Source: an uncultured Chloroflexia bacterium (lineage in GTDB: Bacteria; Chloroflexota; Limnocylindria; Limnocylindrales; CSP1-4). Taken from it: a stretch of 64,000 nucleotides of DNA. Position 1 is the first letter of the stretch. Every line of letters begins with the position of its first letter. The stretch lies in assembly GCA_963833225.1 (NCBI GenBank), contig CAWHXD010000019.1, positions 307,534-371,533 of the forward strand, given 5' to 3'. The translations under genes were made by a program, and so were the position numbers. Positions 10,412-53,143 of the stretch are shown here, piece by piece. The notes beneath the pieces are model-generated. The model made no database searches and was not told the origin of the DNA. It was given only the letters and a program-made list of their open reading frames with translations.

Positions 10412-11206
10412 ATGAGCGTCCTTCCCCCGCTCCGGATCCGCGTCCGCCTGTTCGCCATGCAGCGTGAGAAAGCTGGGACCAAGGAGCTTCGCCTCGAGCT
10501 GCCGCTGGGCTCGACCGTGGACGATGCGTGGGCTGCGGTTGTCGAGGTCGTCCCGGTCTTGGCCCCGGGCCGCTCATCGCTGCGGTTCGCGGTCAACGGC
10601 GACTACTCCGACCCGTCGCGGCCGCTGGCCGATGGCGACGAGATCGCGTGCATCCCCCCGGTCAGCGGCGGATCCGATGCGGCCGACGACGACGCGGCCG
10701 ACGACGATGCCGATCGCGTGCTCGAGATCCGCGCGGCACCGTTTCCCGCGACCCTGGTTGCCGAGCTGTCGGACCGGCTGGCCACGGTCGAGGACGGTGG
10801 CGTCGTCGCGTTCATCGGCCGAACTCGGATCACGCCAGGCACACCGGCCCCCGGGCAGGAGGCCGATGCCGCGACGCACGCCGGTCGTGAGGTCCGGGGT
10901 TTGGCGTACGAGGCCTTTGAGCCGATGGCCCTCCACGTGCTGGGCGAGATCGCCGACGAGATCGAGCAGCGGTTTGGCGTCCGGCGGATCGCGATCATCC
11001 ACCGGACTGGCGAGGTCCCCCTGGGTGAGACGTCCGTCCTGGTCGTGGCGGCGGCACCCCACCGGGACGCCGCCTTCGCCGCCGCCCGGTACGCGATCGA
11101 CGAGACCAAGGCACGGGCACCGATCTGGAAGGCCGAACGGTTCTCCGACGGGCACGTCTGGATCGGTGAGGTGGCTCGGACGGGGCCCGCGGACGCAACC
11201 CGGTAG
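10412..11206 (+). CDS. moaX: Fused molybdopterin synthase MoaD-MoaE (MoaX-like)
   Basis: Met at 10412, in frame with ORF 9269..11206. The N-terminal ~87 aa end in IPPVSGG (ubiquitin-like MoaD C-terminal GlyGly). An acidic linker SDAADDDAADDDAD follows, then a MoaE-like domain (VVAFIGRTR..., IAIIHRTGEVPLGETSVLVVAAAPHR, APIWKAE). Confidence 0.8.
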   Translation: MSVLPPLRIRVRLFAMQREKAGTKELRLELPLGSTVDDAWAAVVEVVPVLAPGRSSLRFAVNGDYSDPSRPLADGDEIACIPPVSGGSDAADDDAADDDADRVLEIRAAPFPATLVAELSDRLATVEDGGVVAFIGRTRITPGTPAPGQEADAATHAGREVRGLAYEAFEPMALHVLGEIADEIEQRFGVRRIAIIHRTGEVPLGETSVLVVAAAPHRDAAFAAARYAIDETKARAPIWKAERFSDGHVWIGEVARTGPADATR

Positions 11207-11276
11207 CCCGACTGGCGACCAACCCGTAACCCAAGGTCGGGATCACGACCGGGCCGCAGGGCGCCATACTTCGGGC

Positions 11277-12872
11277 ATGCATCAGTTCGGGGACGGCACG
11301 ACGATCGAGGAGCTGCGCGCGAGGGCGGCCGGGATCGCGTCGGCCTGGGGTGCTGCCGCAGCCACCTTCACCACCGTCGGCCAGGAACGAGCGATCCTGC
11401 GCCTGTTCGGCGTCACCGGCCTCGACCAGGAGGGCCGGCCGCTTGCTGCCGAGGTCGTCGACCGATACGTGACCCCGGACCCTCGGCGGCTCGGTGGCGG
11501 AATCGCCCTGCCGTTCGCGATGGCCATGGCGGAGTACGACCTCCGCCCGCAGGAGCTGGCGCAGGAGGTGGCGGCCGGGAACGTGGACCTCGGGCTCGAG
11601 GCGGAGCTGCTCGCCGAGCCGGACCGGCGCGCCATCGCGGTCGCCAATGCGGAGGCGCTCGCGCGTGGCGCCCTGGAGAGGATCGACGCGAACCGGACGG
11701 CCCGCCACGAGCTCCTCGCGGTGCTGGGGGACCCGCGGCGGCCATGGATCGGCATGTCGCTCGCCTCACCGGCCATCGTGGATGCCCTCGAGGAGGCTGC
11801 CCGCACGATCGGGGCCGGGGCCGAGCTGGTCCGGGTCGAGGTGCCGCCCAGCCGTGAGCTGGCGGAGCTGACGACACGGGCCGGGCATGCCGTGGAGGGG
11901 TGGCATGCCGACGCCTCGTCCCGGGGCGGTCTCGAGGCCCACGACCCGGCCGGCGCCCCCGTCCCGGCCGGTGCCCAGCGCGCGCTCTCGGTCCTGCGAC
12001 GGTTCGTGGATGAGGCGGGCGCGCGCCGTCGGGGCTACGTGCGGCTGATCACCGATGCCCAGCCGCTGGCCGCGCCGGAGCAGGCGGTCGTCGCGGCCTT
12101 CGAGCGCGTCGACATCGTCGTCGCGGACCCGATGCGCGAGATCGTGACCGGTCGGGTGGACCCGGACCGGGCCCTCGCCGATCACGTGTTCGCGCACCGG
12201 CTGCTGTGCCGGGCCGGGACGCGGGTCATCGTGCCATCCGGGCCGCTCCTCGTGGGGCCGGACCTGGCCCGTGGCCTGCCCTCCGATCCCGCGACCCGCG
12301 CAGGGCGCGCGCTGGCGATGCAGCTGCTGGCCGTCGAGCTGGCGATGCGGGACGGGATGCCCGCCGGAAGCGTGTCGCTGGGTGCGCTCCCGGGCTGGCT
12401 GGTGGAGGAGCCGGACGCTCCCGCTCGTGCCGCCGCCGAGGTCGCGGTCCGGAGGGCGCTCTTCCCCGAGCATCCGCTGGCGTTCATGGAGCCGACCCTC
12501 TCGCCAGAGGCGGCCGGGACATGGCACGCGCTCGCGGCCGCGCTGCTCCCGGATGCGGGCGAGGTGGACGTGGTGCTGCGCCAGGCCGGTGACGCCTCTG
12601 ACATCGTGGCCCGGACCCGGTCGGCGGCAATGGTCGCGGCGGGCCTGCGCGAGGGCCGGTCGACATCGGGTCTCACCGGGGCAGCGGCCGTCCATGCCGC
12701 CCGGTGCCTCGCGGTGGCCTCGGAGACCCTGGCGGCGCTCGAGGAATTGGGTTGGGGCGCCGTCGTGGACCAGCCGCTTGCCGTGGGCTCCGTGGGGCTC
12801 GGGGCGGAGGCGGTCGCGGAACGGACCGGGTCGTTCGACGCGCTGGCGGTCGAGGTGTCGGCTGGCGGCTGA
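11277..12872 (+). CDS. Lysine-5,6-aminomutase alpha-subunit (KamD)-like protein, with no partner subunit nearby
   Basis: Met at 11277, in frame with ORF 10464..12872 (531 aa). From memory, TTVGQERAILRLFGVTGLD and GYVRLITDAQPLAAPEQAVVAAFERVDIVVADPM resemble conserved blocks of KamD. No B12-binding KamE-like gene is adjacent. Confidence 0.45.
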   Translation: MHQFGDGTTIEELRARAAGIASAWGAAAATFTTVGQERAILRLFGVTGLDQEGRPLAAEVVDRYVTPDPRRLGGGIALPFAMAMAEYDLRPQELAQEVAAGNVDLGLEAELLAEPDRRAIAVANAEALARGALERIDANRTARHELLAVLGDPRRPWIGMSLASPAIVDALEEAARTIGAGAELVRVEVPPSRELAELTTRAGHAVEGWHADASSRGGLEAHDPAGAPVPAGAQRALSVLRRFVDEAGARRRGYVRLITDAQPLAAPEQAVVAAFERVDIVVADPMREIVTGRVDPDRALADHVFAHRLLCRAGTRVIVPSGPLLVGPDLARGLPSDPATRAGRALAMQLLAVELAMRDGMPAGSVSLGALPGWLVEEPDAPARAAAEVAVRRALFPEHPLAFMEPTLSPEAAGTWHALAAALLPDAGEVDVVLRQAGDASDIVARTRSAAMVAAGLREGRSTSGLTGAAAVHAARCLAVASETLAALEELGWGAVVDQPLAVGSVGLGAEAVAERTGSFDALAVEVSAGG

Positions 12873-13439: not shown

Positions 13440-16237
<2,798 letters not shown>

Positions 16238-16256
16238 GACGGAGTGCAGCCCCGCG

Positions 16257-17708
16257 CTACACCCCCGGGAGGGCCTCGCCGAGCCCGAACGGCGCCCCGG
16301 CCTCGCGCACGCACGCACGGAGCGCGTCCGCCGTGTCCGGTGCCGGGCTCGCGACCACGTGCGAGGCGAGGATCTCCTCGACCCGCTCCCTCGCCCGCCC
16401 GAAGGCGTCCAGCCCGCCGGCGTCCTGCCACGCCCGCCGCGAGCTGCGATCGATCACCTTCGAGGGCAGGAACTGCTCGGACTTGAACAGCCGGCGCGTG
16501 TCCTGCAGCTCCAGGAACCGGCCCTCCGGACCGGCCTGCTCGAAGAACCCGGTGGCGAGCGTCTCGGTGGGGGTCGCCACCCCGCGCAGCAGGCGCTGGA
16601 CCATGCCGATCATCTCGGCGTCGAGGACCAGCTTCTCCGCGCTCTGGACGAGCAGGAAGTCGAGCATGCCCGGCGCCGGAGATCATGTCGATCCCGGCGA
16701 GACCGCCGATCAGCGCGGTCATGCCGCTCTCGTAGCCGGCCTGGGCATCGACGACCTTGGAGTCGGTCGCGCCGAGGTACGCGTGGACGGGCAGCCCAAG
16801 GGACTTGCCGACCGCCGCATACCCGGCGTCGATCATCGCGGTCTCGATGGCGCCCATCGGGGTGGCGCCGGAGCGCATGTCGATGATCGACGGGGCGCCG
16901 CCCCAGACGATCGGCGACCGGCCTCGGCCAGCTGGTGGAGGACGATCCCCGCCAGGGTCTCGGCGGCGTGCTGGACGATCGCGCCGATCAGGGTGACCGG
17001 TGCGGCGACGCCGGCCAGGGGCATCGAGATGAGCTCGGCCGGGACGTGCGCCCGGGCGAGGTCCATCACGTTCCGGCAGGCGAACTCGGACCAGGTGAGG
17101 GGCGGCGACGGACAGACGTCGAACACGGCCCGCGGCTTCTCGGCGAGGGCGGCACGCCCGCCGGCGTCGATGGCGAGCAGGTCGATCATGATCGCGGAGC
17201 CGCGCGGCGTGAACGCCCCGGTCACCACGGGCTTGGAGCTGTGGACCAGGCACAGGAACAGCCGGTACAGGTCGCCGATCTCGGTGGGGACGTCGTGGGC
17301 CACGATGGCCGTGGACACGGCGTTGTACGCGGGCAGCGCATCCGCCACGCGCAGCAGGCGCGCCAGGTCGGCAGCCTGGGAACGGTGCACCTCGAGCGTC
17401 TCCGGGTCGAGCATCGCCACCCCGGACGAGCCGGGATCGAAGTTGACGACGCCCTGCCCGTAGCGGGCCGCCGGGTCGCCGGCCCGGTCGAACAGGCTGA
17501 ACTCGTGCGGGACGGTGTCCAGTGCGCGCCGGACCATGGCTTCCGGGATGCTCACCCGGTCGCCGTCGGCCGTGGCACCGCTGGCGACGAGCAGGGCGAT
17601 CGCCTCGGGCTCCTCGACCTTGGTGCCGGGGCTGGCCAGCAGCGCCAGGGCTTCGTCGACCACGCGGTCGATCAGGGCGGGATCGAGGAGCTCGAACCGG
17701 GGTCGCAT
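16257..17708 (-). pseudogene. MttB-superfamily (non-Pyl trimethylamine-methyltransferase-like) corrinoid methyltransferase, disrupted by two compensating frameshifts
   Basis: The N-terminal part is in ORF 16833..17756 (from MRPRFELLDPALIDRVVDEAL). The conserved centre PIVWGGAPSIIDMRSGATPMGAIETAMIDAGYAAVGKSLGLPVHAYLGATDSKVVDAQAGYESGMTALIGGLAGIDMISGAG is only readable in the frame of ORF 16186..17253. The C-terminal part MLDFLLVQSAEKLVLDAEMIGM... (ORF 16257..16667) is back in the first frame (17756-16667 is divisible by 3). Confidence 0.85.
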
Positions 17709-17718
17709 CGCCGCGCCC

Positions 17719-19185
17719 TCAGCCAACGCCGGCCGGGCTGGTCCCGGCGGCGGCACGGTGGGCCGCGATCAGCCGCCCCAGCTCGGCATCCTGGGCCGGA
17801 TCGAGCGGCTCGGGGGTGTGCTCGCGAAGCAGCGTCCGGGCCCGCTCGAGGGCCTCGCGGTGGTACTTGTCCGGGTCTGCCTCCCAGGCGCCGTAGTGCC
17901 GCCGGTCGAGATAGCGCGCCTTCCACAGGCCGCGCATCGCCGTCCGGGTGTGCGGCGAGGTCAGGAAGTCACCGCCCGGCCCCACGTCGGCGATCGCATC
18001 CAGGGCGAGCGTCTCGTCGTCGACCGCGATCCCCTCGCACACCTTGGCCACGATCGAGGCGATCTCGGTGTCGAGGATCATCTGCTCGTAGGACCAGATC
18101 CGGGACCCGTGCAGGAGCCCGGCGCCCAGCAGCATGTCCGAGACCACGACCGTGGCCATGAACGCCGACAGCCCGTTCTCGAGGCCGGCCTGCCAGTCGG
18201 ACCGCTTGGCGCCCGTGGCATAGGCGCCCATCGAGAGCGGCACGTGGTAGAAGTCGGCGAGCTGGTTGGTCGCCGCGCCGAACAGGAAGTCCTCCGGGCC
18301 GCCGCCCGTGTAGGCGCCCGACCGCAGGTCCATCGCGGTCTGCGCCGCGGCGTAGTAGACGGGGGCGCCCGGGTGCGCCAGCTGCATCAGGGCCATGGCC
18401 GTGACGACCTCGGCGTTGCCGGTGACGAGCGAGCCCGCCACGGTGGCCGGTCCCGAGAACGCGCACGAGGCCATCGTCATGAACCCGACGGGCACGCCGT
18501 GGCTGGCCGCAACGAGCGAGGCATCGATGGCGCCGCCATCGTGCGCGAGCGGGCTGATCGTGCACTGCATGAGCGAGAGGACCGGGCGGGCCCGCAGCGA
18601 CTCGCGCGAGCCATTGAGGACCTGGGCCATCGCGATCGCCGTCTCCGCCTCCTCGGGCGTGACGATCGACTCGGTCTGGACGTGCTTGGTCGAGTTGCGC
18701 CAGACGGCGGCGACCTCCTCCAGCGAGCGCGTGGATGGCTCCACGTCCTGCGCCGACACCGCGACCCAGTGGAACGCGATCTCGGGCAGCGCGTCGGCGA
18801 CGCGGGCGATGTCCCCGACGTCGGCGAGGGCAGACCGGCGTACCTCGAGGGTCCACGGGTCGAGGACCTCGATCCCACAGCCGTCCGTGGCGAGGTACAC
18901 ATGCTCGCCGTCGAGCGGCAGGTCCTGGTCCGGGTTGCGGGCGCCGAGGGTGTAGGCGCTCGGGGCGTGCTTGAGAGCATCCTCGATCAGTGATCGGGGC
19001 GCCTTGACGATGCCTGTCTCCCGATCCACCTTCGCGCCGTGCTCCGCCCAGATCGCCTGGGCTCGGACCGAGGGAAACCGGACGCCGACGCGCTCGATGA
19101 TGTCGAGGGTGGCCTCGTGGATACGGCCGACGGCGGCCTGCGAGAGGACCTCCAGCCGCGGGCGGCTGTCAGGAATGATGCTCAT
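17719..19185 (-). CDS. MttB-superfamily corrinoid-dependent methyltransferase (non-pyrrolysine), paralog 2
   Basis: ORF track 17719..19257. Met at 19185 is preceded by GGAGG. Contains SIIPDSRPRLEVLSQAAVGRIHEATLDIIERVGV, a typical family N-terminus. Open throughout, with no in-frame TAG. Confidence 0.85.
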   Translation of the reverse strand: MSIIPDSRPRLEVLSQAAVGRIHEATLDIIERVGVRFPSVRAQAIWAEHGAKVDRETGIVKAPRSLIEDALKHAPSAYTLGARNPDQDLPLDGEHVYLATDGCGIEVLDPWTLEVRRSALADVGDIARVADALPEIAFHWVAVSAQDVEPSTRSLEEVAAVWRNSTKHVQTESIVTPEEAETAIAMAQVLNGSRESLRARPVLSLMQCTISPLAHDGGAIDASLVAASHGVPVGFMTMASCAFSGPATVAGSLVTGNAEVVTAMALMQLAHPGAPVYYAAAQTAMDLRSGAYTGGGPEDFLFGAATNQLADFYHVPLSMGAYATGAKRSDWQAGLENGLSAFMATVVVSDMLLGAGLLHGSRIWSYEQMILDTEIASIVAKVCEGIAVDDETLALDAIADVGPGGDFLTSPHTRTAMRGLWKARYLDRRHYGAWEADPDKYHREALERARTLLREHTPEPLDPAQDAELGRLIAAHRAAAGTSPAGVG

Positions 19186-19300
19186 GTGTGCCTCCAGCCG
19201 GGCGCCCCGTGTCCCGGCCACGCGTAACGACTCCGGCTCAGGATCGGGAGCCGGCACCGATGCGGATCAGGGGCGGTGGGGGACGCGCGCCGCGCAGCGA

Positions 19301-19966
19301 TCAGGAGGCGGTGGCCGCCTCCGCGCCGAGGAGCTTGCGGGCCAGCGCGACGGCGCCGATGGCGTCTTCGCTGTACCCGTCGGCGCCGATCTCCGTGGCC
19401 CAGCTCTCGCTGGCCGGGGCGCCGCCGACGATCACCTTGACCTTGTCGCGAATACCCGCGTCGGTCATCGCCTGGACGACGGTCCGCTGTCCGGCCATGG
19501 TCGTGGTCAGCAGCGCCGACACGCCGATCAGGTCCGCGTTGTGCTCCTTCGCCGCCTCGACGAACTGGTCCGGTGCGACGTCCACGCCAAGGTCATGGAC
19601 CTCGAACCCGCTGGTGGACAGCATCATCCCGACGAGGTTCTTGCCGATCTCGTGGATGTCACCCTTGACCGTGCCGATGACCACGCGGCCGACGACGTGG
19701 CGGACGGCCGCCTGCGCCTGGAGCTCCGGCTCCAGGATGTCCATCGCCTTCTGCATCGCCCGGGCCGCGAGCATCATGTCCGGCAGGAACAGCTCGCCGA
19801 GGCCAAATTGCTCGCCCACCCATGACAGGCCGGGGACCAGCCCGTTGTCGATGGCCGCGAGCGGGGCGACCCGCTGGTCGAGGACCTGCTGGGCCAGGGC
19901 GGCCGATGCTGTCGCGTCGCCGTCGATCACGGCCTGACGAAGCGCCGCGTAGAGCTCGTCGCTCAT
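19301..19966 (-). CDS. Cobalamin-binding corrinoid protein (MtgC/MttC-like)
   Basis: Met at 19966 is preceded by AAGGAG. N-terminal helical cap domain, then the B12-binding signature GDIHEIGKNLV (DxHxxG), SALLTTT (SxL) and VIVGGAP (GG). Confidence 0.9.
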   Translation of the reverse strand: MSDELYAALRQAVIDGDATASAALAQQVLDQRVAPLAAIDNGLVPGLSWVGEQFGLGELFLPDMMLAARAMQKAMDILEPELQAQAAVRHVVGRVVIGTVKGDIHEIGKNLVGMMLSTSGFEVHDLGVDVAPDQFVEAAKEHNADLIGVSALLTTTMAGQRTVVQAMTDAGIRDKVKVIVGGAPASESWATEIGADGYSEDAIGAVALARKLLGAEAATAS

Positions 19967-20021
19967 GGTTGCTCCTTGTGCTCGGTTGCCTGCGTGACGT
20001 TGCCGCGAACAGACGACGGCT

Positions 20022-21503
20022 TCATGAACTGGGGGCCGGACGAGGGACGGCGGCCCGCTCGAGGATGGACGCGATGGCCTGCTCCGCCGCCTCGGGGAGC
20101 GGCGGAGCCTGGTGCGATGCGAGGATCTTGTCCACCCGGGCGGCGGCACGCTCCCCGAGGGTCAAGCCGCCGCGAGCGAGCCATTGGGGCCGGCTCGTCC
20201 GGTCGATGAGCGATGGATACCAGTGCTCGCGGTAGTGGTCGAGGGTGTGTTGCGCCTCCAGAAACGACCCGTTGGGTCCGAGCGTGTCCACCAGGTCCAG
20301 CGCGAGCGCCTCATCGTCGAGGGCCACGGGCGCGATCGACGCCCCGATCCAGGCGGCGATCTCGTCGCAGATCGCGAGCTGGGCGAGCGAGCCGCACAGC
20401 CCCGACTCCAGGTATCCGCTGTCGTGGACCAGGTGCCCGCCGGCGAGCGCGTGCCAGAGCATCGTGAGCGACGCGTCGGCCGCCGCCTGTCCGTCCACGG
20501 CCTTGCTGTCCGAGCCGCCTGCGAGCGAGAACATCGGCAGGTCGTAATGGTGGGCGAGCGACGGGACCACGCCCATGTGGTCGGGCTCGGCGTACGGGTC
20601 CACCATCGTGCGCAGGTCGAGGAACTCGCCGCCCATGCCGGGGATGACCACTGGGGTCCCCTCCCGCACGAGGTTCGCGAGCACCAGCCCGACCAGGACC
20701 CCGGCGTTGTTGACGGCCACGTTGCCGGCGAGGGTCACCGGGCCTGTCGTCCCGCCCGACGTGACCGGGATCCACAGGGCCGGCAGGCCGCGCTCCGCGA
20801 GCAGGATCAGCTTGCGGATCGAGTCGCCGTTGTGGACGAGACCGCTGGTGACATTGATGTAGAACGCGACCAGCGGTCGCTCGCGCAGGGCATCGGGCCC
20901 GCCGACCACCGCCTCGGCCATCGCGACCGCGTCGGCCATGGCGTCGACGTCGTAGGTCACCACCACGAGGGGCTTGGTGGTGTGCCGGAGCATGACCGCC
21001 ATCTGCTCCCGGTCCGCCATGGCTGCCGGGACGTCCGAGGGCAGGAACATCGACATCCCGAATGCCATGTTCGGCAGCGCGTCGATGACCGTCAAGCCGT
21101 CACGGGTGTCCCCGACGACGGCCGCTCGCCGCTCGCCGGTCCGGTGGTCGATGATCGAGAGGCAGTCCGACCCGGGCCCGAAGTAGACGTTGTCGCCCTC
21201 GAGGAACAGGCGTGGCTCGCCGGCCCGATCGTGGAGGACGACCGATCGGTTCGCGACGCCCAGCGCCCACTCCACCAGCGATCCCGGCACATGGACCCGG
21301 CCATCGTCGGTCACCCTGGCGCCGGCGCCGTGCAGGCGCTCGACCGCTTGCGCGTCGTGCAGGAGGACGCCGGTTCGCTCGAGAATGGCGAGGCTGGCCT
21401 CGTGCAGCCGCCCGCAGGCTTCGGGTGTCAGGCGGTCGTAGCGCGGCGAACGCGCCATGCGCCGCTCGGGCGGCAGCTTGGGGGCAAGGGATTCCACGGA
21501 CAC
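20022..21503 (-). CDS. MttB-superfamily corrinoid-dependent methyltransferase (non-pyrrolysine), paralog 3
   Basis: ORF track 493 aa. Contains YDRLTPEACGRLHEASLAILERTGVLL and the central PVVIPGMGGEFLDLRTMV and GGSDSKAVDGQAAAD blocks, collinear with paralogs 1 and 2. No in-frame stop. Confidence 0.85.
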   Translation of the reverse strand: MSVESLAPKLPPERRMARSPRYDRLTPEACGRLHEASLAILERTGVLLHDAQAVERLHGAGARVTDDGRVHVPGSLVEWALGVANRSVVLHDRAGEPRLFLEGDNVYFGPGSDCLSIIDHRTGERRAAVVGDTRDGLTVIDALPNMAFGMSMFLPSDVPAAMADREQMAVMLRHTTKPLVVVTYDVDAMADAVAMAEAVVGGPDALRERPLVAFYINVTSGLVHNGDSIRKLILLAERGLPALWIPVTSGGTTGPVTLAGNVAVNNAGVLVGLVLANLVREGTPVVIPGMGGEFLDLRTMVDPYAEPDHMGVVPSLAHHYDLPMFSLAGGSDSKAVDGQAAADASLTMLWHALAGGHLVHDSGYLESGLCGSLAQLAICDEIAAWIGASIAPVALDDEALALDLVDTLGPNGSFLEAQHTLDHYREHWYPSLIDRTSRPQWLARGGLTLGERAAARVDKILASHQAPPLPEAAEQAIASILERAAVPRPAPSS

Positions 21504-21580
21504 CTCACACGATGGAGACGGCCTGATGAGCGTCCGGCCCGCAGGTCAGGGAGCGACAGGGCGGAAGGTCCCGAGGAAAG

Positions 21581-23252
21581 GTGTCCGAGCGACCGTCCGG
21601 GGACTTGCGCGTGCCCGCGAGACTTGACGGGATGCCCCACGTGATCCATGGGAGTGAGCGACGCCCGCTCGTTCCCGGACGCCTGCTGTACGACGAGGCC
21701 GACCAGCTTTCGGTTGTCGTCCCGGCCTCGTGCCAGCGCACGGGGCGCTGCCACGAGTGCGTGGTGGAGATCCGCACGGGGATGGACCAGCTCTCGGCGC
21801 GCACCGCCGAGGAGTCGTTCCTGGGGCCCGCGTTCCGGCTCGCCTGCCAGGCCACGATCGAGCGGGCCGATCGCGACGTCGAGTTTGCGATCCTCCGCCG
21901 CCGGTTGCGGATCCTGCTGGCGCCCGAGTCACCCGGCGAGACCCCCGACCTCGACCCGGCCGTCACGATCATCGAGGGGCGCTATCGCGGACATGATGGC
22001 GCCGACCTGGGTGTGGCGCGCGGGCGGCCGATCGGTCTCGCGATCGACATCGGGACGACGACCGTGGTCCTCGAGCTGGTGAGCCTCGAGACCGGTGGCG
22101 TGCTCGCGGTCGCCGCGCTCGAGAACCCCCAGCGGTTCGGCGGCTCGGACGTGATGACCCGCATCTCGTACGACGGCGAGGTGCCCGGCGAGCTGCGCCA
22201 GGCGCTCCGGCGCGCGCTCAACCACGAGCTCAAGCGCCTGTGCGCCGACCTCGGCCTCGACCGTCGCCAGCTGGTGGACGCCTACGTCGTGGGCAACCCC
22301 ACGATGCGCGACCTGTTCTTCGGGCTTGACGTCAAGCCGATCGGCCACATCCCGTTCCGCTCCGTGACCGAGACGGCGCTCCGGGATGGCGAGGCCGAGA
22401 GCACGACGGTCGTGCGCAAGGCCCACGAGATCGGCCTGCTGATGAACCCCCAGGCGCGAGTCACCGGGGGCCCGCTCATCGCCAGCCACGTCGGGGCTGA
22501 CGCCGCGGCGGACCTGGTCGCCGTGGAGGCGGTGGCCCGTGGCGGCTCGTTCCTGCTGGTCGACATCGGGACCAACAGCGAGATCATCGTCTCTGACGGC
22601 GAGCGGCTGGTCGCCGCGTCCAGCCCGGCCGGCCCCGCGTTCGAGGGCGGCGGGGTCCGTTACGGCATGCCCGGTGCGGACGGCGCCATCGAGAAGATCA
22701 GCCTCGCGGGTGACCGGTTCCGGATCCGGACCATCGGGGACGCGCCGCCGGAGGGCATCTGCGGCTCGGGGCTGGTGGACCTCCTCTCGGAGCTCCGCCG
22801 GGCGGAGTGGATGACGACCCGGGGCACGTTCGCGGACAAGGTCCCGGAGCTCGTGATTGAGCCGACCCATCCCATCACCTTCTCGCGCGCGGATGTCGGC
22901 CACCTCTCGATCGCCAAGGCGGCGACGGCCGTCGGTCAGCGGGTGCTGCTCCGGCGTCTCGGCCTGCGCCCGGCGGACCTCGATCACGTGTACCTCGCCG
23001 GCGGCTTCGCGAACGCGATCGACACCGCGTCCGCGTTCGCCATCGGGTTGCTGGTCCCCGTCCCCGAGGAGCGCGTCACCCGGGCCGGCAACGCGTCCAT
23101 CGGCGGCGCGCGGGCTGCTCCTCCTGTCTCTCGAGCGGCGCGCCGAGCTCAACGATCTCGTCCGGCGCATCGAGCACGTTGAGCTCGAGTCTGAGCCAGA
23201 CTTCTTCGACCTGTTCACCGATGGCTGTCTGTTCGAGCCGATCCCCGCATAG
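21581..23252 (+). pseudogene. RamA/RACo-type ATP-dependent reductive activase of corrinoid proteins ([2Fe-2S] ferredoxin domain + ASKHA/DUF4445), with a +1 frameshift near the 3' end as sequenced
   Basis: ORF 21581..23182 has CQRTGRCHEC...LACQA (C-x5-C-x2-C...C) and GLAIDIGTTTVVLELV. After ...RAGNASIGGAR the conserved tail GLLLLSLERRAELNDLVRRIEHVELESEPDFFDLFTDGCLFEPIPA continues in the frame of ORF 22857..23252. The total length minus 1 nt is divisible by 3. Confidence 0.8.
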
Positions 23253-23264
23253 AGGTCTTCGCCC

Positions 23265-24989
23265 ATGAGTCCCAGTGCCCGCCGCGCCAACACCCCGCCC
23301 GATGACCTGACCGGCCCCGGCGCCCTCAAGCGGGTGCTCTCCTCGAGCGACGGCTTCGCCACGATCGTGGAGCTGGTGCCCTGGGCGGGGCAGCTCGCGG
23401 ACGCCCGGGGGACGAAGCCGCTCAAGATGGCAGCCGACCTGGCGGGCAACACGCGGATCACGGCGCTGTCCATCACCGATAACGCCGGCGGTCACGCCAA
23501 GCTGTCGCCCGACGCGCTCGGCGAGCGGGCGCGGGCCCAGGGCCACGACGCGATCGTCCACATCGCCTGCCGTGACCGGAACCGGAGCGCGATGCAGAGC
23601 CTGGGCTGGCAGCTGCTCTCGCGTGGCCTGACCACCGTCCTCGCGCTCACCGGCGACTACCCGGTGGACGGCTACGAGGGCCTGCCGCGACCGGTGTTCG
23701 ACATCGACTCCGTCTCGCTGATCGACCTGCTGCGCCACCTGTCCGCGGACGCGGTGGCAAAGGCCGAGGCGGACGGTGACGAGGATCCGGGCCGATTCGA
23801 GTTCTTCACGGGCTGCGCGATCGACCCCTTCAAGCGCCTCGAGCGCGATCTCGTGCCGCAGTTCCTCAAGCTCGCGCTCAAGCAGCGGGCGGGGGCGGAC
23901 TACGCGATCACGCAGGTGGGCTACGACGCCCATCGCTCCGACGTCCTGCTGCGCTGGATGCGGCGCGAGGGGATGGACATGCCCGTCGTGGGCAACGCCT
24001 ACATCCTGTCCGCCGGGGTTGCCCGGGCGTTCAACGCCGGCAAGGTGCCGGGCTGCGTGGTCACCGACGACCTGCTCGCGGTCGCCGAGAAGGCCGCCAC
24101 CGGTGCCGACAAGGGCCGCGCGTTCTTCCTCGAGCTTGCCGCCAAGCAGCTGGTGGTCGCCCGCGGAATCGGCATGCGGGGCATCTACATCTCCGGACAC
24201 CGTGACGCAGGCGAGATCGCGAAGGTCCTCGACCTGGCCGACGCCCACCCGGCCGATGACTGGCGGTCGCTGGTCAAGGACGTGTCGTTTGGCCTGCCCG
24301 GCGCCTTCGAGCCATTCGAGAGCGATGGCGCGGGCCTGTCCACGGACGAGTACAGCCGCGCCTACGCCGCGTCGCTCACGCCTGCGGCCCGCGCCCGCGC
24401 CCGCGCGACCGTGCCCCCGGTCTACAAGCTCAACCGGCTGCTCCACGAGCGAGCGTTCGAGCCCGGCTCACCCGGGTTCGCCCTGTGGGGCAAGGTCTAC
24501 CGGAAGGTCGAGGCGTTCCACCTCGACAAGCCCGTCCATGTCCTCGAGCAGGCGGTCAAGGTCCCGATGTTCGACTGCCGGGACTGCGGCGACTGCTCGT
24601 TGCCTGACATCGCGTACCTGTGCCCCGAGAGCCACTGCCAGAAGAACCAGCGCAACGGCCCGTGCGGCGGCGCCCACGATGGCCAGTGCGAGGTGCCGGG
24701 ACACACGTGCGTCTGGGCCGACGCCTACAAGCGCCTCAAGCCCTACGGCGAGGAGCGCACGATGCTCGAGCGACCGATCGTGGTCCAGGACAACACCCTG
24801 CATCGGACCAGCGCTTGGGGCAACACCTTCCTGGGGCGTGACCACTTCGCGAGGCGTGTCGGGGCTCCGCAGACCCCGCCCTTGCAGGCGCCTGCCGCTC
24901 CGGCGACACCCGCGACCAGTCCCGCCACCCCCACCACGCCCGCCACGCCTGCCACTCCGACCGTGCCCGAGAAAGGACCCCGCTCGTGA
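23265..24989 (+). CDS. metF: Methylenetetrahydrofolate reductase fused to a MetV-like Cys-rich C-terminal domain, with a Pro/Thr/Ala tail
   Basis: ORF track 574 aa. MTHFR TIM-barrel part (ITALSITDNAGG, HIACRDRN, LALTGDYP). Then FDCRDCGDCSLPDIAYLCPESHCQKNQRNGPCGG (MTHFR C-terminal/MetV zinc-ribbon-like) and the tail PAAPATPATSPATPTTPATPATPT. Confidence 0.8.
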   Translation: MSPSARRANTPPDDLTGPGALKRVLSSSDGFATIVELVPWAGQLADARGTKPLKMAADLAGNTRITALSITDNAGGHAKLSPDALGERARAQGHDAIVHIACRDRNRSAMQSLGWQLLSRGLTTVLALTGDYPVDGYEGLPRPVFDIDSVSLIDLLRHLSADAVAKAEADGDEDPGRFEFFTGCAIDPFKRLERDLVPQFLKLALKQRAGADYAITQVGYDAHRSDVLLRWMRREGMDMPVVGNAYILSAGVARAFNAGKVPGCVVTDDLLAVAEKAATGADKGRAFFLELAAKQLVVARGIGMRGIYISGHRDAGEIAKVLDLADAHPADDWRSLVKDVSFGLPGAFEPFESDGAGLSTDEYSRAYAASLTPAARARARATVPPVYKLNRLLHERAFEPGSPGFALWGKVYRKVEAFHLDKPVHVLEQAVKVPMFDCRDCGDCSLPDIAYLCPESHCQKNQRNGPCGGAHDGQCEVPGHTCVWADAYKRLKPYGEERTMLERPIVVQDNTLHRTSAWGNTFLGRDHFARRVGAPQTPPLQAPAAPATPATSPATPTTPATPATPTVPEKGPRS

Positions 24990-26026
24990 AGCTCGACCGC
25001 ACCGGCAACCCGTTCCAGATCGTCGGCGAGAACATCCACGCCACCCGGGTTCTGAAGCGGGCCGGCAAGCATGCGGCCGAGCTCGAGGACGGTTCGGTCG
25101 GGATCGCCTTCGAGACGCCCGATGGCGAGCGACTCGTGCTGCCGGTTCACCCGGACCTCGCGGCGGCCCGTGACTTCGCGAACGGCAAGATCAAGCATGT
25201 GCAGAGCGCCGTCAGGCACGGGCTCGATGCCGGGGCGTGGGCGGACGTGGCCGCGGCGTATGTCCGGACGCTCGCCCATCGCCAGGAGGTCACCGGCGCC
25301 GACTGGCTGGACCTCAACGTCGACGAGGTGTCCGCCGACTCCGCGTTCCGTGCCGAGGCCATTGCCTGGCTGGTGGAGACCGTCGAGCAGACCGCCACCG
25401 TCCCCGTGTCGATCGACTCCTCCGATGTCGCCGTGCTCGCCGCCGGGGTCGCCGCTTCCACCCAGCCGCGTGGCCGGCTGATGCTCAACTCGGCCTCCAT
25501 CGAGCGGCCCGAGGTGCTCGACATCGCCGCCGAGACCGCCTGCGCCGTGATTCTTGCGGCCAGCAGCCTCGGTGGCATGCCGGCCAACGCGGAGGAGCGC
25601 GTCGCGAACGCCGTCGGGCTGGTCGAGCTGGCTCTGGCGAAGGCGATTCCCGGCGAGCTCCTCTACGTCGACCCGCTCGTGCTGCCGGTGGCGGTCGCAC
25701 CCGAGGCTCCGGTCTACGTGATCGAGTCCGCGAGGGCCCTGCGGGCCGAGTACGGGGACACGATCCACATGACGGGTGGGCTGTCCAACGTGTCGTTCGG
25801 GATGCCGGCCCGAAAGCTCCTCAACGACACGTTCATCGACCTGTGCGCCGAGGCCGGCATCGACAGCGGGATCATCGACCCGGTGGCGAGCGACCTGCCC
25901 CGCGTGTTCGCCGCGGATCGCGAGAGCGAGCCCTACAGGCTGGCGGCGAACATGCTGCTCGGGCACGACCCGTTTGGCGGCGAGTACGTCGCCGCGTTCC
26001 GGGATGGGCGGCTCGGAGGGGAGTAG
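24986..26026 (+). CDS. Pterin-binding methyltransferase (MtrH/AcsE/MtgA-like methylcorrinoid:tetrahydrofolate methyltransferase)
   Basis: ORF track 346 aa. GTG start overlaps the metF stop (GTGA at 24986-24989). Contains IVGENIHATR, WLDLNVDE, PVSIDSS, YVDPLVLPV and GGLSNVSFGMP, typical of the dihydropteroate-synthase-like pterin-binding barrel. Confidence 0.8.
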   Translation: MKLDRTGNPFQIVGENIHATRVLKRAGKHAAELEDGSVGIAFETPDGERLVLPVHPDLAAARDFANGKIKHVQSAVRHGLDAGAWADVAAAYVRTLAHRQEVTGADWLDLNVDEVSADSAFRAEAIAWLVETVEQTATVPVSIDSSDVAVLAAGVAASTQPRGRLMLNSASIERPEVLDIAAETACAVILAASSLGGMPANAEERVANAVGLVELALAKAIPGELLYVDPLVLPVAVAPEAPVYVIESARALRAEYGDTIHMTGGLSNVSFGMPARKLLNDTFIDLCAEAGIDSGIIDPVASDLPRVFAADRESEPYRLAANMLLGHDPFGGEYVAAFRDGRLGGE

Positions 26027-26138
26027 GAGCGTCGGGGGTGGCGGGGGACCGCGACAGCGGGTCGGTGGCGCGCCTCCGGGCCCCGCCCCCGTGTGACCGC
26101 GGTCGCCATCGCCGGGGCACGCAGCGGTTGCTGCCGGG

Positions 26139-26285
26139 ACGCCGCGCCCCCGTGCAGCCGGCCCCGCCCCCGTCAGCCGGCCCCGCCCCGTGCAGCCGGC
26201 CCCGCCCCGTCGCAGCCGGCCCCGCCCCCGTCAGCCGGCCCCGCCCCGTGCAGCCGGCGCCGCCCCGTGCAGCCGGCCCCCGGCA
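26139..26285. repeat. Intergenic tandem repeat, about seven copies of an imperfect 19-20 bp unit (GCCCCGCCCC(C)GT(G/C)CAGCCG)
   Basis: Read directly: ...gcgcccccgtgcagccg gccccgcccccgtcagccg gccccgccccgtgcagccg gccccgccccgtcgcagccg gccccgcccccgtcagccg gccccgccccgtgcagccg gcgccgccccgtgcagccg... Lies between convergent genes. Confidence 0.9.
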
Positions 26286-26629
26286 GGAGCCCTGGCCCGC
26301 GCGGCCTGTCCCGCCAGGCGCCATTGCGCCGGATATCAGCCCCCGGTGATCCAGCAACGGGTGCCGGTCCCCCGCCGGGCCTAACATCAGCCCTGACCGG
26401 CATCCGGGGCCGAATCGCATGGTCTGATCGTTGCTGTACCGGTCCTGGGTGATATCCGGTGCAGTGACCCGCCCGGTGCCCTCGGGCCAGCGCGAGATCG
26501 CCGACTCGGAAGCTGGGGCGGCGGCAGGCGGCGAGGTCGTGGCCAAGGAACGGCCGTGAGGCCGTGGCCAGGGACTGGCCACGAGGGACTGGGCGGCCGC
26601 CTGGCCCGGTGCCCTCAAGCCAGCGCCCG

Positions 26630-27373
26630 TCAGCCCGCCGGGACCGCCTTCACGACGCCGTCGTCCCAGCTCATCACGAGCTGCTCCCCCGGCTGGAGGA
26701 CGAGCATGTCCTCGCCCCAGTCGCCGTCGATCAGCTGTCGGAGCAGCACGAGGCTGCCCTCGACATGCTCGAACGCCCAGCCACGCCGCTCGGCCTCGTC
26801 GCGCGCGTCGGTCTCGGCGGCCGTCTCGTCGGCGACGCCCATGGACACGAATGCGGCCCGCCCGTAGTGGGACCGCCAGCCGCCCAGGATCTCCATCAGG
26901 TAGTCGGCGTTGTCCTCGCCGTACTTGGCCACGTACTCGGCCCGGGTCTCCTCGATCTGGGCGTCCGTGTCGGATCCGATCGCCAGCCCGCCCACGCTGG
27001 CCCGGTATCCGTCGTTGCGCTCCAGCTGATCCGCGACGTACCAGTAGGTCGCGACCTTCGCGTGCTCCTCGGCATAGCGCTCGCGCGCCCCCAGGAACAG
27101 CGTGATGCAGTCGTGCGCCCGCGGCACGACGACAGGCTTGTCCCGGGCCACGATCCCCGCCGTGGCGCCACCGCACAGCCCGTAGCCCAGCACGATCGCG
27201 TCCGCGTTGGCGGGGGCATCGTCGATCGCCTCCTGGAGCCGTTCCCGCAGCGTCTTCGGCTCGTCGTGCAGGCCGCGTTCGAACATGCGCAGGTCGACGA
27301 CATGCGGGGAGCGGGCGGCGCACAGGTAGACCGGGCGCGCGAGGACGTCGCACGCGATGGCGTACAGGCGCAT
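26630..27373 (-). CDS. DUF1638-family protein (uncharacterised, associated with corrinoid methyltransferase loci)
   Basis: ORF track 247 aa. LGYGLCGGATAGI and PRAHDCITLFLG resemble the conserved Cys/His blocks I recall for DUF1638. 47 nt downstream of the URO-D-like gene on the same strand. Confidence 0.6.
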   Translation of the reverse strand: MRLYAIACDVLARPVYLCAARSPHVVDLRMFERGLHDEPKTLRERLQEAIDDAPANADAIVLGYGLCGGATAGIVARDKPVVVPRAHDCITLFLGARERYAEEHAKVATYWYVADQLERNDGYRASVGGLAIGSDTDAQIEETRAEYVAKYGEDNADYLMEILGGWRSHYGRAAFVSMGVADETAAETDARDEAERRGWAFEHVEGSLVLLRQLIDGDWGEDMLVLQPGEQLVMSWDDGVVKAVPAG

Positions 27374-27420
27374 CAGGCGGTTCCGCGGCGGGTCATGGCC
27401 GCGATCCTACCGCCGGAGGG

Positions 27421-28584
27421 CTACCCACGGAGCGGGTAGTGCCCGAATGCCTCCACGGCGTCGACCATCGCCAGCACGTTCTCGGCCGGCACGTCGTTCA
27501 TGACCGTGTGGACCGCGCCCAGCATGTAGCCGCCGCCCTCGCCCAGGGTGCCGATCACCCGCCGCACCTCGGCCCGGACCTCGTCCGGCGTCCCGTTGGG
27601 CAGCACATGGTGGGTGTCCATTCCGCCGCAGAACACGAGGTTGTCGCCGAACCGCTTCTTGAGCCCGGCGAAGTCGCTCATGCCACCGGCCGACGCCTGG
27701 ACCGGGTTCAGCACGTCGACGCCGATCTCGATGAAGTCGCCCAGCAGGTCGAAGACGTCGCCATCGGTGTGGAACACGATCGGCGCCGCGGTGCGCTGCC
27801 GGATGAACGCGATGAGGTCGGCGTGGATCGGCTTGAGCATCCGCCGGTACATGGCCGGGGACATCAGCAGCCCCACCTGCGACCCGAGATCGTCGCCGAT
27901 CTTGACCATGTCGATCAGGTCGCCGCACTCGCGCAGGAACCCGTCCATGAGGGTCTTGCACAGCGATTGCGTCTTCCACAGCAGCGCCTGGGCGAACTCG
28001 GGCTCGCCGGCGAGGTTGGCGAGGAAGGTCTCGGTCCCCTGCAGCGAGGTGGCCCGCTCGAGCGGGAAGGCGAGCCATGGGCAGCCGACGGAGGCGAACT
28101 CGCCCTCGTCGCGGATCCGCTGCGCCTCGGCGCGGACACCCTCGAACCGGGTCGGGTCCGTCATGTCGGGCCAGGGATACGCCTCGATGTCCTTGAGCTC
28201 GTACGCCTCGGCGAGGGGATGGATGCCCGGGAACCAGTCCTCGGGACCGGCGTAGATGTGGCCACCGCCCCAGTCGTCGATCATCGGGCTCAGGGGCTCG
28301 CGACTGGCGTTCCGCGCGCGGACGTTGGCCGGGAAGTGGTCAAGGACACCGCGGACGTCGGCGTGGAGCCGCCGGTACGTGGCCTCGTCGGGCTTGGCCG
28401 TCCCGAGCTCCGGCCACTCGTAGATGTACTCGTCCGGCGCGTCCACCCCGATCAGGGCCTTGATCCGCCGGTAGGTGCCCATCTTGATCCCGGTCGCGTT
28501 GGTGGGGCCGAGGAAGATCGGCACCCGGTCGGGCACGTCGTGGGCAAGCGTCGCCTGTACGCGCTCGCGGGGCGTCATGGGCAT
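27421..28584 (-). CDS. Uroporphyrinogen-decarboxylase (URO-D)-fold methyltransferase, MtaA/MtbA-like
   Basis: ORF track 387 aa. Contains RERVQATLAHDVPDRVPIF, KIGDDLGSQVGLLMSPAMYRRMLKP, IVFHTDGDVFDLLGDFIEIGVDVLNPVQ and GGGYMLGAVHTVMNDVPAENVLAM, collinear with the second copy at 54029. Confidence 0.8.
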   Translation of the reverse strand: MPMTPRERVQATLAHDVPDRVPIFLGPTNATGIKMGTYRRIKALIGVDAPDEYIYEWPELGTAKPDEATYRRLHADVRGVLDHFPANVRARNASREPLSPMIDDWGGGHIYAGPEDWFPGIHPLAEAYELKDIEAYPWPDMTDPTRFEGVRAEAQRIRDEGEFASVGCPWLAFPLERATSLQGTETFLANLAGEPEFAQALLWKTQSLCKTLMDGFLRECGDLIDMVKIGDDLGSQVGLLMSPAMYRRMLKPIHADLIAFIRQRTAAPIVFHTDGDVFDLLGDFIEIGVDVLNPVQASAGGMSDFAGLKKRFGDNLVFCGGMDTHHVLPNGTPDEVRAEVRRVIGTLGEGGGYMLGAVHTVMNDVPAENVLAMVDAVEAFGHYPLRG

Positions 28585-28724
28585 CGGGGGCCTCCGGGGG
28601 TCGTCTCGGGATGGGGACGCACCACCCAGCCTACCCGACGCCAGGCTTGCCGGGCCGGTTGACGCCGCCGGTAGCGTGGATTGACAGGCGCCGACTCCGG
28701 GCGTCCATCGGGGAGGTTGAACGG

Positions 28725-29129
28725 ATGGCGGGTAGCGGCACGCGCGAGGATCCCTGGCAGCTGGTCACCGCGAACGGAGGTTCCGCATACCAGATGTGGC
28801 GCGACGAGGCGGCCGATCCGCCGGCGCTCGTGTGCCAGGTCGGCAGCACCCAGCTCCGCTATCACCTCCGGGCGATCGAGGACCTGGCGGCGTGGCTGCG
28901 CGCGCAGGGCGACTGGATCCCCCTCGGCGGCGCCGACGAGCAGAAGCTTGCCGCGGAGGGCACGGTCGAGGCGTGGGGCCGCTCGGAGACCAACCCGGTC
29001 GGCGGCTGGTACGGGTTGCGCAAGGGGTACCGGGGCCGCTTCGGCGCCTACCTGCCGCCGCTGCTGGACGCGCTGGGGCTCGCGGAGCTGGAACACAACC
29101 CGAGGAACAACCGGGTGCGCGCTCGCTGA
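28725..29129 (+). CDS. Hypothetical protein (134 aa)
   Basis: Met at 28725 with GGGAGG 8 nt upstream, in frame with ORF 28611..29129. Non-repetitive, balanced composition (TREDPWQLVTANGGSAYQMWRDE...). Confidence 0.55.
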   Translation: MAGSGTREDPWQLVTANGGSAYQMWRDEAADPPALVCQVGSTQLRYHLRAIEDLAAWLRAQGDWIPLGGADEQKLAAEGTVEAWGRSETNPVGGWYGLRKGYRGRFGAYLPPLLDALGLAELEHNPRNNRVRAR

Positions 29130-52039: not shown

Positions 52040-52222
52040 GGCGAAAGACTCCAGCTGGGTGGCGGGCAGGCGGCAACGCGTCGATCCTCCGCCCGCGCCG
52101 TGCCGGTGGCAATGCCAGCGACGGCCGATCGACTGGCAGAACCGGCCGCCAGTCCCGCTGGACGCCCCGAAATCCTCCACATGGCCCTGTCGGATGGGGC
52201 TGCCGGCTGCGAAGGTGGATCC

Positions 52223-53143
52223 ATGGCCGTCTACGTCTGGAAGCAGGACATGGAACCCAGGTTCCCATTGGCGGTGCTCGAGTACACGGCGCGTGATGAC
52301 CACGACCCGATGCACTGGCACGACCACTTCGAGATTGCCCTGGTGCTCGAGGGGCGTGGCTCCTTCCTGTTCGGTCGCCGGAGCCTCCCGGCGGAGGCCG
52401 GCGACCTGTTCTTCATCGACAACAGCCAGCCCCACGTGGCACTCGCGGATCCGGGCCACTCGCTCCGCCTGCTGCTCGTCCTGTTCCGCCCCGAGCTGAT
52501 CGCCGGCCCAGGCTGCCGGGAGCTCGACCTCGGGTATCTCGCGCCATTCCGCGTGGACGAGCGAACGTGGTCGCCGCGGGTCGCCGGGTCGACCGCGCTC
52601 GCCGGCCCAGGTCACGCCGGTGCTCCACGAGCTTCGGGCCATCTTCGATCGTCACGACGCCACGGAGCGGCATCTCGCGGACGCCACGCTCCGGGTGGCC
52701 CTGGCCCTCGTGAACCGCGACCAGGGCACCGCCGCGGTCACCGCCGCCACCGCGCGGGCCGCCGCGGACCGCCGGGAGCAGATCCGGCCGGTCCTCGCCT
52801 ACGTGGACGGTCACTGCCAGGAGAGCATCACGCTCGATGACGTGGCGGACCTGGTCCACGTCAGCCCGTCCCGCGTCCGCCACGTGTTCAAGGACGTGAC
52901 GGGGGTGGGCTTCAAGGAGTACCTGACCGCCGGTGCGGGTCGCCGAGGCCAAGCGTCTGCTCCTGTCAACGGACCTGTCCGTCGCGGAGATCGCGCGGCC
53001 AGGTCAGCTACACGAACCTGCACCAGTTCTACAAGGTGTTCTACCGGTCGTGTGCCATGTCGCCCGGGGAGTACCGCCGCTACTACACGCCCGCCGGTGG
53101 GGAGCCCGTCGTGGCCCAGGCGCGCCAGGAGGTCGCCACGTGA
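52223..53143 (+). pseudogene. AraC-family regulator (cupin sensor + double HTH) carrying three +1 frameshifts
   Basis: Cupin part MAVYVWKQDM...HWHDHFEIALVLEGRG (frame of ORF 51797..52840). The middle part VLHELRAIFD...LDDVADLVHVSPSRVRHVFKDVTGVGFKEYLTA is in ORF 52620. RVAEAKRLLLSTDLSVAEIA is in ORF 52933. The last HTH, VSYTNLHQFYKVFYRSCAMSPGEYRRYY, is in a further frame ending at TGA 53141-53143. Length minus 3 is divisible by 3. Confidence 0.8.

Follow-up and report, generated by a model that had tools for sequence, protein, structure and literature searches.

We have analysed a 64,000-nt stretch of DNA from an uncultured Chloroflexia bacterium (contig CAWHXD010000019.1; this whole stretch is called the window below) which carries at positions 16257-28584 a cluster of about 12 kb for corrinoid-dependent methyl transfer. 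Pfam assigned to it three MttB genes, a single gene for a corrinoid protein and genes for a reductive activase, a fused MetF-MetV protein, a pterin-binding methyltransferase, a DUF1638 protein and a URO-D-fold protein. We consider it likely that the cluster is a methyl-harvesting module of Limnocylindria-like soil Chloroflexota and that assembly errors are the most likely cause of the single-base indels found in two of its genes. Systems of this kind are known already. The new finding is that of three MttB orthogroups, conserved but uncharacterised, with non-canonical substrate pockets within one compact and complete cluster. Judged by the aligned residues, none of the three paralogs resembles any characterised MttB homolog of the type lacking pyrrolysine (Pyl) at the substrate pocket.

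The genes mttB2 (17719-19185, minus strand; 488 aa) and mttB3 (20022-21503, minus strand; 493 aa), which code for methyltransferases I (MT I), are intact, and their products B2 and B3 matched the MTTB profile of the MttB superfamily (PF06253) with 307 bits (profile positions 13-498 of 500) and 273 bits, respectively. The third MT I gene, mttB1 (16257-17708, minus strand), codes for a protein (B1) of 483 aa after the correction of two indels, and its fragments at 16833-17756 and 16257-16667 (minus strand) matched MTTB with 125 and 74 bits. B1, B2 and B3 share 28-29% identity with one another and 25-31% with MtgB of Desulfitobacterium hafniense, MttB of Methanosarcina barkeri and the Sinorhizobium meliloti homolog 4yyc. 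In a distance tree, each of them formed its own clade with orthologs from other genomes. MtgB, Pyl-dependent MttB and 4yyc served as references for the tree and the identities, while MtcB, MtpB, MtyB and MthB were compared through the published statement on R312 (PMC13080624), not by alignment.

The residues that bind the substrate are defined in MtgB, where the trimethylammonium group is held in place by Y97 and F356, and the carboxylate by R312 and H348. The R312L exchange abolishes its activity, and MtcB, MtpB, MthB and MtyB have R312 conserved (PMC13080624). The corresponding arginine is replaced in all three paralogs. In B2, C or G stands for Y97, S for R312, L for H348 and S for F356, with Ala at the Pyl position, and this pattern is invariant in 74 orthologs. 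The B1 pocket (Y97 to S, R312 to H, H348 to S, F356 to L) is invariant in 58 orthologs, with Ala at the Pyl position in 52 of the 58, and the B3 pocket (Y97 to S or D, R312 to F, H348 kept, F356 to G, Gly at the Pyl position) is invariant in 19. The letter at position 97 varied between two alignments, and the other pocket positions were stable. B1 and B2 thus keep none of the four MtgB residues and B3 keeps only H348; 4yyc retains the Y, R and H of the MtgB pocket. Because none of the paralogs keeps the acid-binding Arg and each orthogroup has its own invariant pocket, B1, B2 and B3 are not copies of MtgB. The alignments support their assignment to three deep orthogroups rather than to recent MtgB duplicates; the possibility raised in the initial annotation, that all three fall into one characterised orthogroup, is at odds with the low mutual identity and the distinct invariant pockets. 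Their substrates are probably neither glycine betaine nor any other of the characterised acidic betaines, and three different substrates are plausible.

The cluster is strongly conserved. Its closest proteins and loci, with up to 94-97% amino-acid identity, come from Chloroflexota metagenome-assembled genomes (MAGs) labelled 'uncultured Chloroflexia' (MFD series) or 'Candidatus Limnocylindrales'; judged by these best matches, the host is most likely a Limnocylindria-type bacterium from soil. Gene order was surveyed by searching 82 fetched loci with all window proteins (tblastn); 40 of the loci are of Limnocylindria type and 40 more distant. The same divergent arrangement was always found in the 40 Limnocylindria-type loci, which contain the genes for the corrinoid protein (40), B1 (40), the activase (39), MetF-MetV (37), the pterin-binding methyltransferase (35) and DUF1638 (33); mttB3 (22/40) and the URO-D gene (15/40) are optional. 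These recurrent counts indicate that the gene set travels together, and the arrangement is not due to chance, as dozens of independent genomes have the genes in this order. The genes for the corrinoid protein, B2 and B1 form a conserved core across Limnocylindria, Anaerolineae and Caldilineae, and some MAGs labelled Aminicenantes or Eubacteriales contain mttB2 alone. This core is also present as an operon in L082, a MAG assigned to Anaerolinea. The three orthogroups are widespread, with thousands of relatives in the metagenome protein set.

On the minus strand, mttB3 is followed by the corrinoid-protein gene after 55 nt, by mttB2 after a further 115 nt and by mttB1 after 10 nt. The divergent ramA gene lies 77 nt from the mttB3 start, or 128 nt if its start codon is the ATG at 21632, the one used in the close relative L001; the intergenic region 21504-21631 presumably contains promoters for both directions. 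A gap of 12 nt separates the frame-corrected ramA stop (23252) from the metF ATG, and metF overlaps the next gene by GTGA. Apart from the 128 nt, all these spacings had been given exactly in the initial annotation, and Pfam recovered every domain named there at the coordinates given; a filter based on codon-position G+C recovered the same genes in the window, the G+C content of which is 69-76% throughout. Its description of the cluster as a complete, self-contained module is likewise supported by the domain assignments, which provide three MT I, the corrinoid protein, the pterin-binding methyltransferase, the activase and a methylenetetrahydrofolate reductase (MTHFR).

The corrinoid protein (19301-19966, minus strand; 221 aa) contains the DxHxxG motif as DIHEIG and the cap and Rossmann domains (B12-binding_2 and B12-binding, 74 and 106 bits). 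Its profile matches place it in the MtgC/MttC type: the MtgC-type model of NCBIfam was the best one (228 bits), and TIGR02370 gave 214.6 bits, just under its cut-off of 215.3. The gene is present in a single copy in the window. The activase gene ramA (21632-23252, plus strand) codes for an ATP-dependent reductive activase of the RACo/RamA family with the domains Fer2 (CxxxxxCxxC...C), Raco_middle and RACo_C_ter (21581/21632-23182), which is full length (539 aa) only if one base near 23116 is removed. It is of the 2Fe-2S RACo/AcsV type, with 255 bits for the NCBIfam AcsV model (the best match) versus 123 bits for the methanogen RamA model. MetF and MetV, which are two subunits in acetogens, are fused in the window into one MTHFR of 574 aa (23265-24989, plus strand) containing PF02219 and PF12225; the Cys-rich MetV motif is visible in the translation, and a weak PDB similarity to the Thermus MTHFR was found.

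The pterin-binding protein (24986-26026, plus strand), annotated as a methylcorrinoid:tetrahydrofolate methyltransferase (MT II), matched Pterin_bind with 70 bits and NCBIfam PRK07535 with 180 bits, which is below the cut-off of 259, and has an insertion of about 65 aa after the first strand. Its best solved relatives are D. hafniense 4o0q (104 bits) and MeTr/AcsE, with 93 bits for 2yci. The structure 4o0q was deposited as 'dihydropteroate synthase DHPS' and is, we assume, the MT II of a D. hafniense O-demethylase. For the DUF1638 protein (26630-27373, minus strand; 124 bits), no solved structural relative was found. In Phaeobacter inhibens, the DUF1638 gene shows cofitness with other genes of a split methionine synthase and its phylogenetic distribution matches that of a RamA-like gene (PMC5764234), and in Ruegeria, DUF1638 is induced on N-osmolytes (PMC12478193). 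DUF1638 probably helps in the reactivation of the corrinoid.

According to the mechanism that we propose, B3, B2 and B1 would each bind a methylated, most likely cationic methyl-ammonium substrate and pass one methyl group to Co(I) of the single corrinoid protein. MT II would then transfer the methyl group from methyl-Co(III) to tetrahydrofolate (THF), and MetF-MetV would oxidise the methyl-THF to methylene-THF, to be oxidised further or assimilated. The RACo/RamA activase, probably together with DUF1638, would restore Co(I) from accidentally formed Co(II) at the expense of ATP and a low-potential electron.

This architecture is known from two groups of bacteria, and the suggestion in the initial annotation that the cluster is a candidate for an undescribed variant system does not hold. 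In Eubacterium limosum, the route from MtpB, MtcB and MtyB via MtqC and MtqA to THF, with RamQ as the activase, was shown biochemically, and mtqA and ramQ sit with the genes of methyl-THF oxidation (PMC8604678). In aerobic Ruegeria, a system with two MtgB proteins, MtgC, MtgD, MetF2, RamA and DUF1638 was shown genetically (PMC12478193). The list of established enzymes in the initial annotation is out of date, as it lacks MthB (phosphocholine) and the systems of aerobic proteobacteria. Like E. limosum, the window combines divergent non-Pyl MttB paralogs with a single corrinoid protein, a single MT II that binds pterin and a single ATP-dependent activase. The corrinoid proteins of the two systems belong to the same MtgC/MttC type, and in both systems the MT II and activase genes adjoin those of methyl-THF oxidation. 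The parts of the E. limosum system are scattered over several loci, whereas those of the window are collected in one divergent cluster, and the hosts differ, a gut acetogen versus a high-GC soil Chloroflexota bacterium. In addition, the three MT I of the window lack the acid-binding Arg, its MetF is fused to MetV and it has DUF1638.

Ruegeria pomeroyi and P. inhibens share with the window the same component families, including DUF1638 and a dedicated MetF paralog; the hosts in which it works are not acetogens, and two MttB-family proteins are co-induced (PMC12478193, PMC5764234). The proteobacterial MtgB type represented by 4yyc differs, as it keeps R312 and H348 and is 45% identical to D. hafniense MtgB, whereas the window paralogs are 26-27% identical to 4yyc and lack R312. 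Furthermore, the Roseobacter MtgC was reported as a distinct clade close to CmuA and, unlike in MtgBCDE, no MtgE or other S-methyl_trans-type homocysteine-binding gene was found among the window genes scanned. The MtgB-MtgC-MtgA system of D. hafniense (2qne/9yce) agrees with the window in fold and in its three-component logic, and provides the best PDB match for both B2 (230 bits) and B3 (186 bits), but Y97, R312, H348 and F356 are not conserved as a set in the window paralogs and the identity is 28-31%.

Two genes of the cluster are interrupted in the window. A comparison with L001 and L003, the two closest public relatives, revealed a -1 indel at about 16918 and a +1 indel at about 16671 in mttB1 and a +1 indel at about 23116 in ramA, each of a single base; judged against these two relatives, all three are private to the window. 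Their removal yields MttB1 of 483 aa and RamA of 539 aa, which are the lengths annotated in L001, where an intact mttB1 ortholog of 483 aa is present. The two mttB1 indels compensate each other, and the 81 codons between them, when read in the corrected frame and compared with L001, comprise 66 identical, 12 synonymous and 3 nonsynonymous ones; the remainder of mttB1 shows a like pattern of mostly synonymous change, and the ratio of synonymous to nonsynonymous codon changes in the corrected frames is about 4:1. From these codon comparisons, the corrected mttB1 and ramA frames look to be under purifying selection. Since neither relative shares the indels and the pattern in the corrected frames is that of purifying selection, the frameshifts are most likely long-read assembly errors and at most very recent lesions, and the locus is unlikely to be silent and broken, a case considered in the initial annotation. 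L001 has a private frameshift in its own pterin methyltransferase gene (L001 3171-4212), and L003, a MAG of the presumably nanopore-based MFD series, has one in metFV (L003 4286-5890). These private frameshifts point to systematic indel errors in such long-read MAG assemblies.

The membership of the URO-D-fold protein (27421-28584, minus strand; 387 aa; Pfam URO-D 85 bits) in the system is doubtful. Its AlphaFold2 model (pLDDT, the predicted local distance difference test, 90) had MtaA 4ay7 as the top Foldseek match, with a template modelling (TM) score of 0.61-0.69, followed by many UroD structures with TM of about 0.6-0.7. In place of the H-x-C...C zinc motif of MtaA-type enzymes, the protein contains invariant H272-T-D274 and H359, and TIGR01463 (MtaA/CmuA family) gave 57 bits versus a cut-off of 235. 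Both the zinc site and the family-level score thus fail to place the protein in the MtaA/MtbA/CmuA type, with which it shares the fold. Orthologs with 62-65% identity are solitary on three Chloroflexota-type metagenome contigs, with no corrinoid genes nearby, and together with the count of 15 in 40 related clusters they give no conserved association with the corrinoid protein. The proposal in the initial annotation that the protein is a URO-D-type methyl acceptor enzyme is not supported by these results. The assignment as HemE was also rejected, as the 85 bits extend over a part of the profile only and the identity with solved UroD structures is 14-19%. A second URO-D paralog (54029-55181, plus strand), which is 46% identical over the C-terminal 200 aa, has an H-T-C-G motif and is split in two frames, adjoins sugar genes (NagA, a PRAI-like gene and a PfkB kinase), not corrinoid genes. 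In the relative L039 (2-1073), the URO-D gene is internally deleted (141 aa left) and is followed by a second corrinoid gene, 50% identical to the cluster's own; this arrangement leaves a link of URO-D to corrinoid possible.

Several points weigh against the interpretation of the cluster as a methyl-harvesting module. The experimentally studied systems lie outside Chloroflexota, the window has no transporter or downstream catabolic gene that hints at the substrate, and the matches include no Limnocylindria isolate, the close relatives all being MAGs. The common use of one corrinoid protein is deduced only from the fact that the 64-kb window has no second gene of this type. The indels might be real and leave mttB1 and ramA of the strain impaired, and the direction of the flow is not fixed by the sequence, as MT II enzymes can run both ways, e.g. 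MtgD in Ruegeria (PMC12478193). An alternative, according to which B1, B2 and B3 are ordinary MtgB or other already characterised betaine demethylases, follows the usual annotation in metagenome surveys, where such genes are named mtgB (PMC6081815), and agrees with MtgB as the top or near-top PDB match of B2 and B3 and with the MtgC type as the best NCBIfam match of the corrinoid protein. We regard it as improbable: MtgB is 45% identical to its S. meliloti homolog but only 28-31% to the window paralogs, which have lost the glycine-betaine-binding residues, B3 retaining only H348, and where the characterised enzymes have the conserved Arg (PMC13080624), each orthogroup has an invariant Ser, His or Phe. 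A different role for two of the paralogs, in which MttB2 and MttB1 form a heterodimer or perform successive demethylation steps on one compound, with MttB3 as an add-on, is suggested by the position of mttB1 directly after mttB2 in 69 of 80 loci (median gap 96 nt) from several Chloroflexota classes, and by the MtgB dimer, in which each C-terminal extension completes the active-site rim of the partner (PMC13080624). About ten loci contain mttB2 without mttB1, however, and the non-Pyl members known take just a single methyl group from a quaternary amine; we hold joint action of the two to be rather unlikely.

The module might also be mainly biosynthetic, like a split methionine synthase, with methyl groups flowing from methyl-THF via the corrinoid protein to an acceptor and with URO-D as the thiol-methylating part. 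The cofitness of RamA-like and DUF1638 genes with split MetH genes in P. inhibens (PMC5764234), the action of MtgC and MtgD in both directions in Ruegeria (PMC12478193), the occurrence of MtaA within the URO-D fold and as the top structural match of the model, and the position of the URO-D gene 47 nt upstream of the DUF1638 gene on the same strand are all compatible with such a role. We nevertheless consider it unlikely, as URO-D lacks the Cys zinc ligands of MtaA-type thiol methyltransferases, with H-T-D...H instead, scores far below the MtaA/CmuA cut-off, is missing from 25 of the 40 related clusters and has solitary orthologs in unrelated contexts on three other contigs as well as a second paralog among sugar genes; moreover, no homocysteine-binding domain was found among the window genes scanned, and three MT I genes would be left without a role. 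Three frame-breaking single-base indels across two genes could, finally, mean that the locus is decaying in this strain and that mttB1 and ramA are true pseudogenes. This seems highly improbable, since all the indels are private to the window, L001 and L003 bear different private frameshifts, which is the pattern expected of assembly error, and the mttB1 indels compensate each other with mostly identical or synonymous codons in between. The split second URO-D paralog and a private indel at about 11212 are further frame breaks within the window.

Methyl harvesting remains the interpretation that we favour, and gene neighbourhoods in other lineages provide weak leads to the substrates. M20, S9 or S58 peptidase genes stand beside mttB2 in 21 of the 40 more distant loci. 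A clearly operonic arrangement among these relatives is GntR-corrinoid protein-B2-B1-S9 peptidase-fourth MttB paralog-M20, and another is S58-S58-amino-acid permease-B2; a distant B3 ortholog adjoins S15 and S66 peptidases and an oligopeptide ABC transporter. These arrangements were seen in L071 (8437-17508), L059 (6239-12957) and L087 (9001-19440), which are Anaerolineae-type and other MAGs, whereas neither the Limnocylindria-type loci nor the window have such peptidase or transporter neighbours. Amino-acid- or peptide-derived substrates are suggested only by guilt by association, because the acid-binding Arg is lost and peptidase and transporter genes are neighbours in other lineages. It is therefore conceivable, although we hold it to be doubtful, that B1, B2 and B3 open a new substrate class of the superfamily, comprising amino-acid- or peptide-derived methyl-ammonium compounds or non-acidic quaternary amines, with B2 and B1 perhaps acting as a heterodimer. 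Candidate substrates may be trimethyl-lysine, N-terminal or other amino-acid betaines and non-acidic quaternary amines. If true, this class would stand apart from the acidic osmolyte betaines established to date.

To our knowledge, only six enzymes from the MttB superfamily have known substrates, and in metagenomes from soil and sediment few 'methylotrophy' genes are annotated as often as those of non-Pyl MttB homologs. In a floodplain study, mttB was found in 17% of the MAGs, most commonly in Acidobacteriota and Chloroflexota including Limnocylindria, so that mttB homologs in Limnocylindria MAGs have already been noted at the annotation level (PMC11264602). Non-Pyl mttB genes are routinely read as coding for trimethylamine or glycine-betaine demethylases (PMC6081815). 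Because the B1, B2 and B3 orthogroups lack the glycine-betaine-binding residues, such readings are probably wrong for this Chloroflexota lineage. Expression of the compact conserved gene set as one unit could reveal new methyl donors of abundant soil bacteria, and the set could also serve to test the role of DUF1638.

None of the paralogs appears to be a Pyl-dependent MttB. The scores for the TIGR02369 equivalog were 429 bits for B2 and 359 and 320 bits for the other two versus a cut-off of 525, and the Pyl-equivalent residue is Ala in B1 and B2 and Gly in B3. As stated in the initial annotation, mttB2 and mttB3 contain no in-frame TAG; there is no tRNA gene in the window, and no pyl-like domain turned up among the window genes scanned by profile. 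The match to Pyl-MttB of M. barkeri (7xcl), with 200 bits for B1 and 217 bits for B2, is nearly as good as that to MtgB, and B1 and B2 have the GAG(M/L)L motif in common with Pyl-MttB. An Rfam scan of 16000-29000 (E<=1) detected no cobalamin riboswitch and no other family except PYLIS_3, which matched in register within mttB1 (16671-16770, minus strand) and was the only Rfam match in the whole window (38.9 bits versus a gathering score of 38). The match begins exactly at the Pyl-equivalent codon, which is GCG (Ala) rather than UAG, ends at the +1 indel and includes several non-canonical pairs. A functional element was rejected in view of this first codon and the poor pairing, and we read the match as coding-sequence homology to Pyl-type mttB.

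Some features in and around the cluster are of minor importance. The 603-nt spacer between the MT II and DUF1638 genes (26027-26629) contains about eight tandem copies of a GC-rich, GCCGGCCCCGCCCCGTGCA-like unit of 19 nt (26141-26297) followed by a 38-nt imperfect inverted repeat (26322-26466). This spacer is missing in L001, where about 80 nt separate the annotated DUF1638 gene from the 3' fragment of the split MT II gene, and the DNA alignment of the window with L001 breaks across it. A tyrosine phenol-lyase gene (14828-16237, plus strand; TIGR02618 764 bits versus the equivalog cut-off of 721; about 90% conserved) is convergent with mttB1 at a distance of 19 nt. It was found in the 10-kb flank of 21 of 40 relatives, but at a variable distance, in convergent orientation and with unrelated genes between, and was rejected as a part of the system; its proximity is treated as lineage synteny. 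An open reading frame of 802 aa (10464-12872, plus strand) corresponds to two genes in L001, coding for a ThiS/MoaE fusion (261 aa) and a distant lysine-5,6-aminomutase-alpha-like protein (536 aa), which may have been fused by a window-private deletion of 1 nt at about 11212; no gene for a B12-binding beta subunit adjoins it. A flavoprotein of 785 aa (49867-52224, minus strand) was tried as a trimethylamine or dimethylglycine dehydrogenase and rejected, its best matches being mycofactocin-type and BaiCD types, all below the cut-off; it combines OYE-FMN and Pyr_redox domains and is of the FadH/BaiCD/mycofactocin-OYE type.

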